Positions 20 to 49,208 of a DNA stretch of 50,083 bases are shown here, in pieces (positions within the stretch are counted from its first letter, which is position 1; each line of letters starts with the position of its first letter). The stretch comes from Dehalococcoidia bacterium. GTDB lineage: Bacteria > Chloroflexota > Dehalococcoidia > Lucifugimonadales > UBA1127. The DNA is taken from NCBI GenBank assembly GCA_963694315.1, contig CAVOCU010000002.1:1-50083 (forward strand). The letters are read 5' to 3'. The translations under genes and the position numbers were made by a program. The notes beneath the pieces were generated by a model. The model worked only from the letters and a program-made list of their open reading frames with translations. It was not told the origin of the DNA and made no database searches.

Positions 20-614
20 CTAGACGCGCGGCCTCTTGGAGCGGAGGGCGAAGAATGCGATGCCCCCACCAAACACCAGTACCGCAATGATGATGCCAAT
101 AATCAGGCCCCGGTTCCCGCCATCATCGTCGTCAGACGGTGCAATGGTAGCCACTGCCGTTGGCGCAGGTGCCGGAGCAATCGTGGCCATTGCACCAGGT
201 GCCGGAGCCGTTGTGGCGGTTGGCGCTGGCGTTGCTATGGGTGCAGGCGTGGTTACTGGTTCAGGCCGTTGGCGTTGCCACCTGCTGCGCCTCTACCGTG
301 AAGGTAGCAAACTCCCGGTCAACGCGCACTTCAGACGTACCTGCAAACAAGTACGCCGTATCAACTGTGAAAATCACGGTCTCCGTTGATCCTGCTACTA
401 CCGCCACGGATTCAGCATCGGCGAACGCGTCGGCGATGGACAGATTGATCGGGAAGGTCTCGTCCGTTGCCCCGATGTTGGTCACGGAGGCCGTGCTAGT
501 CACCGAAGTGCCCACTACAGCCGTAGCAGGTGTTACCTGCAAGTCCGCAACGGTGAAGCCTAAGCTTGCGGGCTCTGTGCCGCCAGTGATGGCGAACAGG
601 GAGAACCCTGGCAC
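20..614 (-). pseudogene. CARDB-like beta-sandwich domain protein with Pro/Thr/Ala linker and C-terminal TM anchor; reading frame broken near 261-270
   Basis: ORF 261..614 (GTG start) reads like a CARDB/Ig-like domain (TVADLQVTPATAVVGTSVTSTASVTNIGATDETF...TVIFTV) and stops at TGA 261-263. By hand translation an adjacent frame continues as PEPVTTPAPIATPAPTATTAPAPGAMATIAPAPAPTAVATIAPSDDDDGGNRGLIIGIIIAVLVFGGGIAFFALRSKRPRV*, ending at TAG 20-22. No N-terminal signal peptide is visible. Confidence 0.5.
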
Positions 615-5517: not shown

Positions 5518-5634
5518 CAGGGACTGGCCTGCGGGCCAGAATCTTTAGTCTCTTCGCCGCAGCGATATGTGCGTGCTTTAGTCTCCGCCGGAGGCCACAC
5601 AGCTTTAGTCCCCTCGCCGCAGCGACACATGCCC
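5518..5634 (+). repeat. Repeat array D-A-B-A between convergent genes
   Basis: GGGACTGGCCTGCGGGCCAGA, followed by CTTTAGTC cores at 5543, 5576 and 5603. It ends 3 nt before the SDR stop codon. Confidence 0.9.
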
Positions 5635-6853: not shown

Positions 6854-6933
6854 ATATGCAGGGGACTGGCCTGCGGGCTTTAGTCTCCGCCGGAGGCCAC
6901 ACTACTTTAGTCTCCTCGCCGCAGCGACATATC
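6854..6933 (+). repeat. Repeat array D(truncated)-B-A
   Basis: ATATGCAGGGGACTGGCCTGCGGG, then CTTTAGTCTCCGCCGGAGGCCACA, then CTTTAGTCTCCTCGCCGCAGCGACATATC. It ends 4 nt before the proA stop. Confidence 0.9.
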
Positions 6934-9196: not shown

Positions 9197-9585
9197 CATA
9201 TACAGGGGACTGGCCTGTGGGTCAGTGGGCCAGTGTTTGCTAGTAGCCAGAAGGAGGCGGGGTCTTTAGTCTCCCGGCCAGCAGGCCGCATGCCTGAGAC
9301 TGGCCTGTGGGCCAGAAGCCGACTTTAGTTCGCGCCGGAGCGATATATGCGCGCTTTAGTCTCCGCCAGAGGCAATACGCCGCATGCTACAATGTTTGTA
9401 GTTAAAGGCCAGCGTTGGAGGCACCCTCTCCACGCGCTGGCCCCTTTTGGCGTGTCTGGGACTTTAGTCTCCTCGCACCAGCGACACATATCTGGGACTG
9501 GCCTACGGGCCAGAAGCTTTAGCCCCCCGGCCAGTAGGCCGCATACTCGGCTTTAGTCTCCGCCGGAGGCAACACGCCGCATATT
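9197..9585 (+). repeat. Largest repeat array (about 10 units, all plus orientation) in the proB/mfd divergent gap
   Basis: CTTTAG cores at 9264, 9323, 9354, 9462, 9517 and 9552. D modules (GACTGGCCTRYGGGCCAG) at about 9205, 9297 and 9495. A unique 70-bp island (9387-9456) sits in the middle. Confidence 0.9.
9407..9450 (+). terminator. Orphan terminator-like hairpin inside the repeat array
   Basis: GGCCAGCG-T-TGGAG...CTCCA-CG-CGCTGGCC followed by CCTTTTGG. No plus-strand gene lies upstream. TACAAT occurs at 9388-9393. Confidence 0.35.
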
Positions 9586-18457: not shown

Positions 18458-19489
18458 TTACGCAATGACTACCTGGGGCCCATCGCCGACAGGAGCCACG
18501 TCACCAACCACAATCGCCTCCGGGATACTGGCACAGACGGAAGCAATGTCACCTGGGGCCACTGCCACAATCATGCCGATGCCCATATTAAAGACGCGGT
18601 TCATCTCTTCTGCGCCCACCTTGCCCTGTTGTTGGATGAGTTGGAAGAGTGGGGGAACTTCCCATGTGCTGCTGTCCAATCGCGCAGCCACGCCCTCCGG
18701 CAGCATCCGAGGAACATTGTCGGTAAACCCGCCGCCCGTGATGTGCGCCATGCCCTTGATGCGGTCCAACACTGGCGTTAGCTGGGCTACGTACGACATG
18801 TGGGGAACCAGGAGTGCATCGCCCAGCGTCACGCCAAGCTCTGCTGTGTACTTGCTAAGAACCGTTGGATCGTCGTCAATGCCGAAGATGCGCCGGACCA
18901 GCGAGTACCCGTTGGTGTGCAGACCGTTAGACGGGAGGCCCACGAGCACGTCGCCTGCAACGATGCCAGCACCGTCAATTACAGCATCACGTTCCACAGC
19001 GCCCACCACAAATCCAACCAGTTCCACATCTTCGCCAACATACATGCCCGGCATCTCGGCAGTCTCGCCACCAATGAGGGCGCAGCCCAGAGCTTTGCAG
19101 GCATTCGCCATGCCAGAAACCAGGGATTCCACCTTCTCTGTAGATAGCGTGGCCATGCCCATATAGTCCAAGAAGAAGAGGGGCTTGGCGCCACACGTCA
19201 GAATATCGTTGGTGGTGTGGTTAACAATGTCTATACCCACGGTATCGTAGCGGCCCATGAGGCTGGCAATGCGGAGCTTGGTGCCAACGCCGTCCGTGTG
19301 GGCTACCAGGACAGGGTCTTTGTACCCCGCTACTTGATAGAGCGCGCCAAAGGCTCCAATGTCTCCCAGGACGCCGGGGGTGAAGGTGGATCTGGCGAGT
19401 TTGAAGATGCGGTCTTTCGCACTACCCGCGACATCACGGTCTACTCCGGCACCCTTGTAGACCTCTTCAGACACGGGTTGCTCCTTCAT
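18458..19489 (-). CDS. purM: Phosphoribosylformylglycinamidine cyclo-ligase (AIR synthetase)
   Basis: Contains YKGAGVD and THTDGVGTK, with a PurM N/C domain layout. Confidence 0.95.
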   Translation of the reverse strand: MKEQPVSEEVYKGAGVDRDVAGSAKDRIFKLARSTFTPGVLGDIGAFGALYQVAGYKDPVLVAHTDGVGTKLRIASLMGRYDTVGIDIVNHTTNDILTCGAKPLFFLDYMGMATLSTEKVESLVSGMANACKALGCALIGGETAEMPGMYVGEDVELVGFVVGAVERDAVIDGAGIVAGDVLVGLPSNGLHTNGYSLVRRIFGIDDDPTVLSKYTAELGVTLGDALLVPHMSYVAQLTPVLDRIKGMAHITGGGFTDNVPRMLPEGVAARLDSSTWEVPPLFQLIQQQGKVGAEEMNRVFNMGIGMIVAVAPGDIASVCASIPEAIVVGDVAPVGDGPQVVIA

Positions 19490-24220: not shown

Positions 24221-25330
24221 TCAGTCTTGTGGGGCCAGGCTCAGCCTGGGGTTGGCGTCCACTGCCAAGGTGGGCTGGAGGCCTCGCTGCATACCGTAGA
24301 ACGCCGCTGCGGCAATCATAGCGCCGTTGTCCGTGCACAGCACCAGGCGAGGGATGACCACAGGAACCGGTGACTTCTCCCGGATAGTTGCCCTTAGCAA
24401 TGCGTTGGCTGAAACGCCGCCGCCCACCACAATCCCTCTGGCGGCATATTGTTCAACGGCCTCCAGCGTTTTCCCTACCAGCACATCCACCACCGCGTCC
24501 TGGAACCCTGCAGCCAGAGCCTTTCGCTGCTCTTCACCAGCTTCGGCCAGGCCCTCAGACCTGTCCCCTCCATATGTCGCTGCGGCGAGGGGACTAAAGC
24601 CCGCGCCCTGGTCAGGAACGCCCTGGTCTACGCCCACCGCCACGCCAAGCTCCTTGGCTTTCCTCAGCAGTGCAGTCTTGAGGCCGCTGAAGCTGAACTC
24701 CAAGGTGCCACGCATCCACGGTCTAGGCAGGGGCTCAGAGCGTGTTGCCAGGGCCGCCTCGCGCTGGACTGCCGGCCCGCCGGGGTAGCCGAGGCCTAAT
24801 ACTCGCGCCGCTTTATCAAAAGCCTCTCCCGCTGCATCGTCACGGGTGCTGCCCAGGAGTTGGTAATCGCCGTGACCTCGCATCAGAACCAGCTCCGTGT
24901 GCCCGCCGGACACCAGCAGACAGACCATAGGGAAGCCTATAGCCTCCTCTGGCGTGGGGCCTTCCTCAAGCCAGCCCGCGTACATGTGTCCTTCAAGGTG
25001 GTTCATGCCGTACAGAGGCACTCCAAGGCCCATAGCGATGCCTTTGGCGTAGTTCACGCCCACCAGGAGAGAACCCGCCAGTCCGGGGCCAGCAGTGACC
25101 GCTACAGCGTCTAGATCGGTGGGGGCCACGCCAGCCTCGGCGAGGGCAGCGCGGTAGATGGGGGTGATGGCTAGCATGTGCTGTCGTGACGCGACTTCCG
25201 GGACGACGCCACCGTAGCGGGCGTGCACCTCGACTTGGGAGCTGATGACGTTGGAGAGGATGATACGTCCGTCACGGACAACAGCAACAGCCGTTTCGTC
25301 GCAGGAGGTCTCAATGCCAAGTACTAGCAT
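24221..25330 (-). CDS. tsaD: tRNA N6-adenosine threonylcarbamoyltransferase
   Basis: Contains [22 protein letters not shown] and CTDNGAMIA. At 369 aa it is about 30 aa longer than usual because of an internal insert. Confidence 0.93.
24548..24628 (-). repeat. Repeat element (D-like / A / D-like modules) inserted in frame inside tsaD
   Basis: 24571-24599 is CATATGTCGCTGCGGCGAGGGGACTAAAG, a perfect A unit. In the gene sense it is translated as FSPLAAATY (residues 245-253). The flanks resemble D modules. Confidence 0.8.
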
Positions 25331-26034: not shown

Positions 26035-26083
26035 CATGTGTCGCTGCGGCGAGGGGACTAAAGACGCAGCCGGATAGCTAAAG
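26035..26083 (-). repeat. Two repeat units between the TPP-decarboxylase beta gene and the PP2C-like gene
   Basis: CATGTGTCGCTGCGGCGAGGGGACTAAAG followed by ACGCAGCCGGATAGCTAAAG. It abuts the stop codon at 26084. Confidence 0.85.
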
Positions 26084-29418: not shown

Positions 29419-29524
29419 CAGGCCAGAGGCTTTAGTCTCCCGGCCCACAGGCCGCATACGGCTTTAGTCTCCGCCGGAGGCAATATTGCCTTTAGTCCCC
29501 TCGCCGCAGCGACACATGTCTGGG
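29419..29524 (+). repeat. Repeat array D(truncated)-C-B-A filling the whole gap between convergent stop codons
   Basis: CCAGGCCAGAGG, then CTTTAGTCTCCCGGCCCACAGGCCGCATACGG, then CTTTAGTCTCCGCCGGAGGCAATATTGC, then CTTTAGTCCCCTCGCCGCAGCGACACATGTCTGGGG. Confidence 0.9.
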
Positions 29525-31695: not shown

Positions 31696-32286
31696 CTAGA
31701 TGCCCAGCTTGTCAGCCAGCATCGCGCGGATCTCTTCAACGGTGGCGCGCTGCCATGCGGGATAGCGCTCCACCAGGCGAGGTCGGGACACCTTACGCAC
31801 TTCGGCCTCTTCCGTGCCAGCGGGAAGCTCCTTGCGCGCCTCTTCTATGAACTGCTCGGTCTCCTGGTAGCCGATGGCAGGCTTCTCAATCCAGTGGCAC
31901 TGGTACACGCCCGCTGCGGTGTAGAAGATGACCGTGGGGATGGAGCGGAACTCGCCACGGTTCAGGAACTCGTCGGCAATGTCCAGGTTCTCATCGCGAG
32001 GGAAGACGCGTAGCTCAATGCCCGCTGCTTTTGCAATACGCGTGAACACCGGCAACCCGCGATACACGTCTGGGCACCAGTCCTCGCCCACCACCAGCAT
32101 TTTCGCAGCGCCGCTCTGGGCCGCCTTGGTGAAGAACGCCACGTCGTCAGCGTTGAGGACATCGGTGGAGGTCTCTGTGTACTCCTGGAACTTGTCGTGG
32201 TTTACCTTAATCTGTGCAATGTAGTCGCTGTACGTGAACCCAGATGCGTACCGCTCTGGTGTTACTACGCTTGTCTGCTCTGCCAT
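31696..32286 (-). CDS. Thioredoxin-fold family protein (single-Cys WCPD motif)
   Basis: Contains VVGEDWCPDVYRGLP and IPTVIFY. I chose ATG 32286 because AGAGGAGAA lies upstream. The track's extra 88 N-terminal residues overlap the Grx-like gene in another frame. Confidence 0.65.
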   Translation of the reverse strand: MAEQTSVVTPERYASGFTYSDYIAQIKVNHDKFQEYTETSTDVLNADDVAFFTKAAQSGAAKMLVVGEDWCPDVYRGLPVFTRIAKAAGIELRVFPRDENLDIADEFLNRGEFRSIPTVIFYTAAGVYQCHWIEKPAIGYQETEQFIEEARKELPAGTEEAEVRKVSRPRLVERYPAWQRATVEEIRAMLADKLGI

Positions 32287-32380
32287 GTTGTTCTCCTCTT
32301 TGCTTTTGCCTGTGTATGGGAACCACCGTGGGTAAACCGTCAGGTCAGGTATATCCCGCAACGCGGGACTAGATGATTGC

Positions 32381-32596
32381 TCAGCCCCATTCCCCTTCAA
32401 ACCCCTCTTCAACCCTACCGCCAGGATGGATGATGAGGGGGACCGACTCGCCGTACCCGCGGGCTTCGTCCATGAATACCTGGTTTTCTTCGACTTCCCG
32501 TTCTTCGAACTCGATACCCCGCTCCCGCCACGCAACGCGTAGCTGTTCACAGGTGGGTCAGGTGCGCATCGTGTAGACGATGGTCATAGTGGGCAT
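32381..32596 (-). CDS. Glutaredoxin/NrdH-like small redox protein with in-frame TGA at the first active-site position (candidate selenoprotein, U-P-T-C)
   Basis: Hand translation: MPTMTIVYTMRT-TGA-PTCEQLRVAWRERGIEFEEREVEENQVFMDEARGYGESVPLIIHPGGRVEEGFEGEWG*. GGAGGA lies 5 nt before ATG 32596. TGA is at 32558-32560. The Grx-fold landmarks (CxxC position, cis-Pro VP, G-rich end) are all in place. Confidence 0.6.
32524..32557 (-). promoter_or_regulatory. Candidate bacterial SECIS-like structure downstream of the Grx-like TGA
   Basis: Sense sequence is CCCACCTGTGAACAGCTACGCGTTGCGTGGCGGG. The outer stem is CCC-CC/GG-GGG and the apical mini-hairpin is ACGC-GUU-GCGU, placing G/U in a loop about 22-24 nt after the UGA. 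Folded by eye only. Confidence 0.3.
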
Positions 32597-34181: not shown

Positions 34182-34227
34182 CTATTTACACTCTACCTGT
34201 CATAGTTACTAGTCTAGCCTCGTATTT

Positions 34228-34255
34228 ATATATCGCTGCCGCGCGGGGACTAAAG
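34228..34255 (-). repeat. Single A-type repeat unit in the nuoM/nuoN gap
   Basis: ATATATCGCTGCCGCGCGGGGACTAAAG. Confidence 0.7.
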
Positions 34256-34289
34256 ACTCCGCGCATCCTCGCCCGTAGGGCTTGCCCTG

Positions 34290-46180: not shown

Positions 46181-46372
46181 CCTGACCCACAGGCCAGTCC
46201 CCGGCATGTCGCTGCGGCGAGGGGACTAAGGCTCCGGCCCCCCTGGTCTACAGGCCAATCCCCGGCATGTCGCTGCGGCGAGGGGACTAAAGCCGTATTG
46301 CCTCCGGCGGACATAGCGGTGACGGAACATTACAAAATTACACTGTAATCTCCTCGCCGCAGCGACATTTGT
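46181..46372. repeat. Repeat array upstream of nuoA: D-A-D-A-B(degenerate) in minus orientation plus one inverted A unit
   Basis: CATGTCGCTGCGGCGAGGGGACTAA(A)G occurs twice (46205-46230 and 46266-46292). The arms ATGTCGCTGCGGCGAGG (46267-46283) and CCTCGCCGCAGCGACAT (46352-46368) form a 17-bp inverted repeat with a 68-nt spacer. Confidence 0.9.
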
Positions 46373-48286: not shown

Positions 48287-48393
48287 CATATGTCGCTGCG
48301 GCGAGGGGACTAAAGTCGGCCCGTCTGGCCCGCAGACCAGTCCCCTTCATATGCGCCCAGTTGACAGACTGATTCTGCGCGCGGAGACTACAG
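48287..48393 (-). repeat. Repeat array A-D-(B/A variant), minus orientation
   Basis: CATATGTCGCTGCGGCGAGGGGACTAAAG, then TCGGCCCGTCTGGCCCGCAGACCAGTCCCC, then ...CTGCGCGCGGAGACTACAG. Confidence 0.85.
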
Positions 48394-48435
48394 CCAAATT
48401 CCAGCGAAAGCACAAGTTGAGGGGAGCGATTTTCA

Positions 48436-49146
48436 ATGCCGTGGATTAAGGTGATACAGGAGCACGAGTCCGAGGGTGAACTCAAGGAAGCCTATGAGCG
48501 CATGCGCCAAGTCAACATTGAGTACAACGATGAGATGATTCGGGACATGCCAGCCGGCCCACCAAAGGCGCATCCGGTGACACCGCCGGAGCTGTCTAGC
48601 TTGAACCCGTTGTCCATGTTGTATGGTCGGCAGTTCATGATGCAGGTCATGCGGGGCGACTCTCGAGTCACCCCGGCCCAGCGCGAGATGATTGCTACCG
48701 TGACCTCTCTGGCCAACAACTGCCGCTACTGAACTGTTGCACACGCAGGGGCCCTGCGTAGAGTTGGCGGAGATGACCTCTTGGCGGAGTTTATCCAGAA
48801 CGATTGGCGAAAGGCAGACCTGACGGACGGCGAGCGCGCCATGCTTGAGTACTCGGAGAAGCTGACCCTGACTCCTGCCATGATGGAGGAATCGGACGTT
48901 CAAGCCTTGCGAGACGCTGGCTGGGACGACAGAGATGTCCTGGACATCGCAACCGCGTGCGCCTACTTCAACTTCCGCGTGCGTATTGTTGATGGCCTGG
49001 GGCTGGAGGTTTCAGATACCACGGCGGAACGCGCCACCGAAGCTCGCGAGCACGCCAAGGAGCTTGCAGCGGAGAAGGGCGTTAAACTCCCTGGCGATAT
49101 CTGGGGCGTCGGCGAGCAGGCAAAGGCTTCCAAACCCAAAGTCTAG
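48436..49146 (+). CDS. AhpD/carboxymuconolactone-decarboxylase-family peroxidase-related protein with in-frame TGA in the redox motif (candidate selenoprotein, C-R-Y-U)
   Basis: Track ORFs 48436..48732 and 48781..49146 are in the same frame. Reading through TGA 48730-48732 gives ...VTSLANNCRY-U-TVAHAGALRRVGGDDLLAEFIQNDW..., the CxxC...H motif context of AhpD-like proteins. The N-terminus MPWIKVIQEHESEGELKEAYERM is typical of the family. RBS GAGGGGAG lies upstream. Confidence 0.65.
48743..48759 (+). promoter_or_regulatory. Candidate bacterial SECIS hairpin 10 nt downstream of the AhpD-like TGA
   Basis: ACGCAGG-GGC-CCTGCGT, a 7-bp stem with a G-rich apical loop about 18-20 nt after the UGA. 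Confidence 0.4.
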
Positions 49147-49178: not shown

Positions 49179-49208
49179 GAAACCCGCTCACGTAAATGAG
49201 CGGGTTTC
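49179..49208 (+). terminator. Intrinsic terminator after the AhpD-like gene
   Basis: GAAACCCGCTCA-CGTAAA-TGAGCGGGTTTC followed by CTGTTTCTTG. Confidence 0.7.

Follow-up and report, generated by a model that had tools for sequence, protein, structure and literature searches.

A read-through gene with an in-frame TGA codon

The DNA analysed in this study, hereafter the window, is a 50-kb stretch (50,083 nucleotides) of a contig from a Dehalococcoidia bacterium, and the claim under test concerned a split gene of the AhpD/CMD family at 48436-49146 on its forward strand. A sequence-only reading of this DNA had described two open reading frames (ORFs) that lie in one frame and are parted by a single TGA, and both the coordinates and the translation agree with that description. 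The ORFs at 48436..48732 (98 aa) and 48781..49146 (121 aa) have a common frame, with an offset of 345 nt (3 x 115), and the read-through translation of 48436..49146 gives 236 residues with a terminal TAG and one internal stop, the TGA at 48730-48732. The 236-residue protein and the motif C-R-Y-[TGA]-T-V-A-H that had been read from the letters are reproduced by this translation, in which the surroundings of the TGA are ...SLANN-C96-R-Y-[TGA]99-T-V-A-H103. Taking together the evidence from homologues described below, we consider it very probable that 48436..49146 is one AhpD-like selenoprotein gene, whose in-frame UGA encodes selenocysteine (Sec).

Homologues share the ends of this gene, with the same MPWI... 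start and the same end point. A Shine-Dalgarno-like sequence precedes the start codon, and the terminator-like hairpin behind the stop codon suggests a monocistronic unit (Table 1).

Table 1 Positions of the AhpD-like gene, its elements and other features of the window
Feature	Position	Strand	Remarks
Predicted AhpD-like (TIGR01926) selenoprotein gene, complete	48436..49146	+	236 codons and TAG stop; putative Sec at codon 99
Redox motif C96-R-Y-U99-T-V-A-H103	48721..48744	+	TGC 48721-48723; putative Sec codon TGA 48730-48732; CAC (His103) 48742-48744
Shine-Dalgarno-like GAGGGGAG	48419..48426	+	9 nt before the ATG at 48436; role suggested by sequence
Glu84 codon	48685..48687	+	part of the invariant stretch AQREMIAT; 12 residues N-terminal to Cys96; proton-relay candidate
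Candidate bacterial SECIS-type hairpin	48743..48759	+	stem ACGCAGG (48743-48749) / CCTGCGT (48753-48759), loop GGC (48750-48752)
Possible lower-stem extension of the SECIS	48734..48770	+	T-V-A codons paired with G-G-D codons; in the minimum-free-energy folds of many homologues
Intrinsic-terminator-like hairpin	49179..49208	+	12 bp, then T-rich tail; 33 nt past the stop codon; consensus match only
Predicted Grx-like selenoprotein gene, separate from the AhpD-like gene	32381..32596	-	71 codons; TGA = codon 13, first base 32560; motif T-U-P-T-C
Repeat copies	5600-5631(-), 6902-6933(-), 9459-9490(-), 24571-24602, 26035-26066		
Repeat copies	29487-29518(-), 34227-34258, 46203-46295, 46340-46371(-)		46203-46295 in tandem 61-nt units

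Family and predicted fold of the read-through protein

For scoring with hidden Markov models, Cys was placed at the TGA position of the read-through protein. The protein matches TIGR01926 (NCBIfam, peroxidase-related enzyme) with 125.3 bits (cutoff 81.8), its residues 69-192 aligning with positions 51-175 of the 178 profile positions. Scores above the cutoffs were also obtained with the AhpD core domain TIGR00778 (34.6 bits; cutoff 27.8) and with Pfam CMD (36.6 bits; cutoff 23). Two models for (seleno)proteins remained below their cutoffs, namely NF041238 (AhpD_rel_CFYUT, alkylhydroperoxidase-related; 56.8 vs 175 bits) and NF053654 (GroundWater_YciW, YciW-related; 16.6 vs 310 bits), and no AhpD equivalog model is among the NCBIfam matches of the read-through protein at E <= 0.01. 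These profile scores place the predicted protein in TIGR01926, the AhpD/CMD-type 'peroxidase-related enzyme' family, and the TIGR01926 and Pfam CMD scores confirm the AhpD/CMD-family, peroxidase-related identity that had been assigned to the split gene.

The solved structures closest to the protein by sequence are 3c1l, 6k40, 2pfx, 2oyo, and 2prr (E from 5e-27 to 2e-20), with E = 5e-27 for 3c1l and E = 4e-25 for 6k40. The fold was tested on a proxy, P0004, a natural Cys form of the same subfamily and architecture that is 50% identical to the window protein. The AlphaFold2 model of P0004 has a predicted local distance difference test (pLDDT) score of 94.1 and a predicted template modelling (pTM) score of 0.90; it is all-helical, and its CxxC lies at the N-terminal end of helix 82-94. 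The best structural matches of this model are 6k40, 3c1l, 2prr, 2oyo, and 2pfx, with template modelling (TM) scores of 0.83-0.90, and the best of them is 6k40 (DR1765), with a TM score of 0.88 and a root-mean-square deviation of 2.0 A. These nearest structures form the peroxidase-related group (E ~1e-10, 27-36% identity). As judged from the model of this proxy, the predicted 236-residue product is a protein with the all-helical AhpD/CMD fold. With 185 aa, the canonical members are shorter than the long-form clade that includes the window gene (about 225-236 aa); this clade has an insert near the N-terminus (about residues 27-52) and is extended by ~45 aa at the C-terminus.

Conservation of the TGA codon and its Cys counterparts

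The protein comparison set comprised 94 database homologues, among which about 60 close ones (55-76% identical) are fragments of 130-143 aa. The aligned fragments start with M-AHAGALRR, and this start corresponds to a GTG two codons past the TGA position of the window gene. Since these fragments share one start, gene callers have split all of them at the same codon. At six loci (L001-L006), a gene of 92-95 aa ends three bases ahead of the called start, and in the DNA of these loci and of a seventh (L007), the homologous codon is TGA, and the protein is conserved to either side of it.

A locus scan with one genome per GTDB species returned 80 loci, of which 79 have TGA at the Sec codon; the remaining locus is archaeal and has TGC (L084). 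The closest loci come from Dehalococcoidia, with up to 86% identity, and the others include Binatia, 'Deltaproteobacteria', Udaeobacter, Cloacimonadota, Planctomycetota, Marinimicrobia, Thermoanaerobaculia, Anaerolineae, Bacillota, and Armatimonadetes. In some genomes the gene has two to four paralogues, every one of them with TGA. The Dehalococcoidia chromosome OZ240228.1 has four such paralogues (L019, L022, L025, and L054), and OZ244559.1, OZ252245.1, OX638292.1, and OZ220679.1 have two TGA paralogue loci each. Among these, OZ220679.1 (2.59 Mb) is the nearest relative at chromosome level; CAJWXP01, a fragmented metagenome-assembled genome, is closer. The paralogues of one chromosome fall in different subclades, with hairpins of the HAGALR and HAEFLR types.

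Full-length homologues have Cys in the Sec column, as seen in P0004, P0061, P0072, P0075, and P0084, which carry CRYC, CEYC, or CAYC. The printed alignments with 3c1l, 6k40, and 2pfx place the TGA opposite the second Cys of CxxC, and they show a conserved His four residues after it. The sequence-only reading had argued that the TGA replaces the second catalytic Cys of a CxxC...His motif and had proposed a search of homologue alignments for a Sec/Cys pair; the Cys homologues and the three structures support the replacement, and the search yielded both members of the pair, Cys at the aligned column and TGA in 79 of the 80 loci.

The window organism recurs in many metagenome assemblies, for example on the contig ena:ERZ27247710:k141_628796, and gene calls in them invariably give 98 + 121 aa; the homologues are split in public assemblies into hypothetical proteins of about 95 + 121-139 aa. 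To the question raised earlier, whether gene callers merge the halves, the answer is that they split the gene in every public assembly examined, and that the single merge, from the Joint Genome Institute (JGI), reads TGA as Trp. This merged call, P0001 (L007; gene 160-831 on a 960-nt contig of JGI 3300086683), is full-length and has CRFW, with Trp at the Sec position. The Trp is an annotation artefact, since the DNA there is TGA and the translation of this contig used a table with TGA=Trp.

The recurrent GTG start bears on another arrangement, in which the two halves would be separate polypeptides, the second made from an internal start, and would assemble non-covalently. Such an arrangement could account for the many homologues in which gene callers use the GTG two codons past the TGA as a start codon. 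In the window, however, the corresponding codon is GTT, which is not a start, and the first possible start is the TTG at 48781, 16 codons further; the codon encodes Ile in L008 and L025. Moreover, separate halves would cut the CxxU...H active site between two chains, and the Cys forms are single chains. We therefore regard separately made halves as extremely unlikely and favor one continuous selenoprotein chain.

A covarying hairpin follows the TGA

A clean hairpin, ACGCAGG-GGC-CCTGCGT, had been pointed out ten nucleotides downstream of the TGA and compared with a bacterial selenocysteine insertion sequence (SECIS). The hairpin is present at that place: its 7-bp stem begins 10 nt past the TGA, inside the H-A-G-A-L-R codons, and it is the predicted minimum-free-energy structure of the window sequence. 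We aligned 63 codon-registered sequences from the TGA onward without gaps, 58 of them distinct. In the distinct sequences, the helix columns 14-20 x 30-24 are paired in 97.5% of cells, compared with 23-61% when the partner column is slid, and five of the seven stem pairs show change on either side. None of 500 shuffles reached any of the observed helix measures, the first loop nucleotide (column 21) is an invariant G, and RNAalifold finds the same helix unprompted.

The paired variants include ACGCAGG-GGC-CCTGCGT (H-A-G-A-L-R), ACGCAGA-GTT-TCTGCGT (H-A-E-F-L-R), ATGGAGC-GGC-GCTCTAT (H-G-A-A-L-Y), and ACGGGCG-GGC-CGCCCGT. Since the pairing holds across these peptide changes, the conservation of the hairpin is not due to the protein level alone. 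Of the 7 pairs, three distant Cys forms make just 2, 5, and 2. All 7 are kept after the Cys codon (ACGCAGA-GTC-TCTGCGT) in L088 (the DNA locus of P0004; gene 23-706 of a logan:SRR14039729 contig), the closest Cys form, which has CRYC with TGC. These features fit a recent Sec-to-Cys change that left a remnant SECIS, a pattern described previously (PMC1794560). The covariation, the invariant loop G, and the link to the TGA bear out the hairpin as a putative bacterial SECIS. The possible lower-stem extension is weakly supported, as 4 of its 9 pairs fail to form in 25-40 of the 58 sequences.

In more distant subfamilies, represented by the loci L071-L087 from Planctomycetota, Marinimicrobia, Thermoanaerobaculia, and Anaerolineae, the hairpin stands at a greater distance past the TGA, about +22 to +40. 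The covarying stems are GACCUC/GAGGUC, GACUUC/GAAGUC, AGCCUC/GAGGCU, and CUUCGUCA/UGACGAAG, and the loops contain G, some of them resembling GGUC.

The reading frame downstream of the TGA is under purifying selection

The selection comparison drew on the close relatives L008-L026. After the TGA, the differences at the first, second, and third codon positions number 11/7/35 for L008 and 13/9/46 for L009, and more changes are synonymous than nonsynonymous (28 vs 11 in L008 and 37 vs 15 in L009); the upstream pattern is alike. The other two frames downstream are closed by 4 and 5 stops. These substitution patterns indicate that the sequence past the TGA is translated in the same frame and is under purifying selection. 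The downstream half also carries the most conserved residues of the family, for example AYFNFR and GLG.

If the TGA were a nonsense mutation in a pseudogene, translation would terminate there, just the 98-aa N-terminal fragment would be made, and the downstream ORF would be decaying. In every assembly, the TGA is indeed where gene callers end the first ORF, and Sec machinery was not seen in the window, both of which would be compatible with a pseudogene. However, the TGA stands at the same codon in 79 of the 80 loci across many phyla, and independent nonsense mutations would not recur in this way. The in-frame purifying selection on the downstream half, which holds the most conserved residues, and the covarying hairpin after the TGA also contradict decay. 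The conservation of the TGA and the downstream selection effectively refute the pseudogene on the sequence data, and we assign it a negligible probability.

Decoding of UGA in the window

Among the 35 larger genes of the window, TAG ends 21, TAA 10, and TGA 4. The genes ended by TGA include nuoL and tsaD, and at several of them the next gene begins at or just before the stop. At a genomic GC content of about 57%, so few TGA stops are unusual. In-frame TGAs in the window are limited to redox-motif positions.

These counts bear on the possibility that the TGA is decoded as something other than Sec, either because the code is reassigned (TGA = Trp or Gly) or by non-specific near-cognate read-through. 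The Trp that the JGI call P0001 has at this codon would agree with a reassigned code; on the other hand, it is a translation-table artefact on a 960-nt contig, and reassignment is excluded since TGA still terminates 4 of the 35 genes. In addition, in-frame TGAs are confined to redox motifs, the homologue column has Cys and never Trp or Gly, and a structured element accompanies the TGA and is absent from the distant Cys forms. Decoding of this TGA as another amino acid thus has hardly any probability in our view, and Sec is the residue that we assign to position 99.

The sequence-only reading had also counted a second gene with a TGA in a redox motif within ~16 kb. This gene is a Grx-like gene with a conserved TGA/Cys pair, as had been supposed. 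It scores 33.8 bits with Pfam Glutaredoxin and has a Shine-Dalgarno-like GGAGGA ahead of its ATG. The TGA is kept in the relatives L094-L099 (79-94% identity), is replaced by the Cys codon TGT in L100-L106 (57-60% identity), and is found again in the more distant L110-L112. From the AhpD-like and Grx-like genes together, we infer that the organism decodes UGA as Sec.

In the Grx-like gene, too, the TGA is followed by a hairpin. Directly downstream of this gene, on the same strand, lies a gene for a Thioredoxin_9-domain protein (31696..32550).

Proposed Sec insertion and function

In the standard bacterial pathway, on which we base the proposed decoding, SelB with Sec-tRNA(Sec) would bind the mRNA hairpin at 48743-48759, and the SelB complex would outcompete release factor 2, so that Sec would be placed at position 99. 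The tryptic peptide across residue 99 would be YUTVAHAGALR, and the peptide upstream of it EMIATVTSLANNCR. The redox centre of the predicted protein, Cys96-x-x-Sec99-x-x-x-His103, would be located at the N-terminal end of a helix, with Glu84 12 residues upstream of Cys96. Glu84 is invariant in alignment A2, and His103 is invariant in alignment A4. Glu84 is a candidate for the proton-relay Glu, a role assigned from M. tuberculosis AhpD (MtAhpD). The active-site residues of MtAhpD are reportedly Glu118/Cys130/Cys133/His137, with the second Cys attacking (Koshkin et al. 2003).

The selenolate of Sec99 is the likely attacking nucleophile, acting on a peroxide or on an oxidised partner protein, and its attack would yield a selenenic acid or a mixed selenenylsulfide. 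Cys96 may then resolve this intermediate to form an intramolecular Se-S bond, which a cellular thiol system would re-reduce. Since the proposed cycle between Sec99 and Cys96 is a redox cycle of this kind, we infer by analogy a function in thiol/selenol-dependent antioxidant or disulfide-reductase chemistry. DR1765 of Deinococcus radiodurans is the closest homologue to have been characterised; its deletion mutant is sensitive to H2O2, and CxxC mutants of DR1765 complement it poorly (PMC8945050).

A selenoprotein might also catalyze chemistry other than that of an AhpD-type peroxidase or AhpC reductase, either as a general selenol-thiol oxidoreductase or as a Bmp8-like reductive dehalogenase. 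The fold search with the P0004 model also retrieves the CMD debrominase Bmp8 (6ohi; E = 2.6e-5, TM 0.81), together with other CMD proteins whose functions differ. The protein is not an AhpD equivalog, it differs from the 185-aa canonical members by the N-terminal insert and the C-terminal extension, several paralogues occur per genome, and ahpC is not nearby, all of which would leave room for a different activity. However, the identity to Bmp8 is just 18%, and the nearest structures by far belong to the peroxidase-related group, including DR1765 with its H2O2-sensitivity phenotype (PMC8945050). We consider such other chemistry unlikely and prefer the thiol/selenol-dependent function described above.

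Nearly all copies in the long-form clade have Sec, and as many as four TGA paralogues occur in a genome of Dehalococcoidia or Binatia. The clade could represent a functionally distinct selenoenzyme rather than merely another AhpD-like antioxidant protein, a proposal to which we give only a low probability. It may be a stand-alone selenol peroxidase, or a reductive dehalogenase or detoxifying enzyme in the style of Bmp8 or the deiodinases in marine and subsurface Chloroflexota. If the clade is indeed distinct, its SECIS would be locked into the conserved H-A-G/E-A/F-L-R codons beside the active site.

Weight of the evidence and search for the Sec machinery

Several observations weigh against the assignment of a selenoprotein gene with this function. 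No selA, selB, selD, or tRNA-Sec gene was found in the 50-kb window or in the 10 kb past its right end, and tblastn with E. coli SelA/B/D queries gave no match in the 671 kb examined. The absence of sel genes decides nothing, since 50 kb is a small part of a multi-megabase genome. The folding energy of the hairpin is unremarkable on the single sequence (66-nt region, z = -0.49, 52 of 200 shuffles as stable), and the hairpin sits in conserved codons, so that its conservation is partly at the protein level. Given this ordinary stability of the single-sequence fold, it is the comparison of homologues that supports the hairpin. The Sec at position 99 is predicted from sequence, no AhpC/peroxiredoxin gene adjoins the AhpD-like gene, and the proposed biochemistry is carried over from Cys homologues with just ~40% identity. 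With these points included, we still regard 48436..49146 as very probably one AhpD-like selenoprotein gene.

Three sets of candidates for components of the Sec machinery were rejected. The ORF at 18458..19489 (343 aa, AIRS + AIRS_C), considered as SelD, is PurM, with 349.6 bits for PurM and 28.4 bits for SelD (cutoff 125). The ORFs of 492, 506, and 623 aa beside the Grx-like gene, considered as SelA/SelB, are NuoN/M/L-type antiporter subunits. In L029, the 93-nt 'tRNA-Gly (tcc)' called by ARAGORN at 405..497 (-) is coding-like and has no Rfam tRNA or tRNA-Sec match at E <= 1, and we consider it a false positive. The window itself contains no tRNA genes, and no Rfam family reaches its gathering score anywhere in it. 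Under the rule of BSepDB, a species is counted as Sec-utilizing only with at least two of SelA, SelB, and SelD, and Dehalococcoidia metagenome-assembled genomes are among those so counted, which gives support at the level of the class (PMC13326102).

Neighbouring genes and dispersed repeats

The AhpD-like gene is flanked by genes for an MFS transporter, a small protein without a Pfam match, an ABM monooxygenase-like protein, and a 5'-nucleotidase. No conserved partner gene was found at the homologue loci examined. The rest of the window contains housekeeping genes, including purM, purH, purF, obg, mfd, proA, tsaD, and nuo genes.

A family of short dispersed repeats with the core ATGTCGCTGCGGCGAGGGGACTAAAG occurs at 48287-48318 and at no fewer than 9 further sites in the window, as well as in L008. 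Together with a partner arm (...CAGRCCAGTCCCC..CATAT), the core forms a GTCCCC/GGGGAC inverted repeat. The copies are mostly intergenic and resemble repetitive extragenic palindromic (REP) sequences or miniature inverted-repeat transposable elements (MITEs); one lies ~120 nt upstream of the start codon of the AhpD-like gene. Near 46.2 kb, the number of tandem units differs between the otherwise identical contigs L091 and L092.

The copy at 24571-24602 lies in frame inside tsaD (24221..25330, -), in an unusually long linker at residues ~230-265, and the TsaD match of the hidden Markov model is split into two stretches around it. This in-frame repeat resembles the palindromic-element insertions of Rickettsia.

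Comparison with known selenoproteins and AhpD proteins

The AhpD-like CxxU selenoprotein family is already known. It was described in 2005 by Zhang, Fomenko & Gladyshev from the Sargasso Sea, with 27 sequences, the assignment to COG2128, the CxxU motif, and a SECIS figure, and since the family has been in the literature from that time, the gene found here is an ordinary one (PMC1088965). AhpD-like selenoproteins were reported in sequenced genomes in 2006 (PMC1794560). In the 2008 analysis of the Global Ocean Sampling (GOS) data, they formed the fourth most abundant selenoprotein family, with 299 Sec forms and 902 Cys homologues (PMC2398784), and the table of a 2026 review lists AhpD-like under TIGR01926 with CxxU (PMC13188914). 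With the window gene, the selenoproteome of this abundant, uncultured lineage of Dehalococcoidia gains an AhpD-like member. With 46-49 selenoproteins, Dehalococcoidia metagenome-assembled genomes are among the richest bacteria in BSepDB (PMC13326102); the lineage is thus already catalogued as rich in selenoproteins, and the gene opens no new question. For annotation, selenoprotein-aware calling would mend dozens of entries that are split or misread with Trp, and the conserved hairpin provides a simple marker for them.

The candidate SECIS of the window resembles that of the E. coli fdhF type, as both are coding stem-loops just 3' of the UGA with a conserved G opening a small loop. In the window hairpin, this G is located about 18 nt past the UGA. 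The bacterial SECIS model of Zhang & Gladyshev (2005) is said to allow a distance of 16-37 nt from the UGA to the loop. Unlike the fdhF element, the window hairpin has a shorter supported stem (7 bp), a 3-nt loop, and no evident bulged U, and its binding by SelB is putative.

MtAhpD, the lipoamide-dependent AhpC reductase of M. tuberculosis, shares the AhpD core domain TIGR00778 with the window protein and is not among the PDB sequence matches of the window protein at E <= 0.01. The spacing E84-x11-C96-x2-U99-x3-H103 of the window protein presumably equals that of Glu118/Cys130/Cys133/His137 in MtAhpD. The window protein is far closer to DR1765, and DR1765 and MtAhpD share just 12% identity (PMC8945050). 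In DR1765 (6k40) and Mlr4105 (3c1l), CxxC aligns with C96/U99; the P0004 model superposes on the 3c1l chains with TM scores of 0.83-0.90, and 6k40 and 3c1l are 30-36% identical to P0004. Unlike the predicted window protein, both have Cys instead of Sec, comprise about 185-197 aa, and lack the two extensions.

The closest counterpart of the window gene is the AhpD-like 1 family (COG2128/TIGR01926). Both belong to the same family of the hidden Markov models, have CxxU with Sec (predicted in the window protein) for the second Cys, and have, right behind the UGA, a SECIS (a candidate one in the window) whose small apical loop contains a G. As for the window gene, Cys homologues of this family are widespread, and the family is abundant in marine metagenomes. 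We see no essential difference between the two, the window gene being a long-form member with two extensions.

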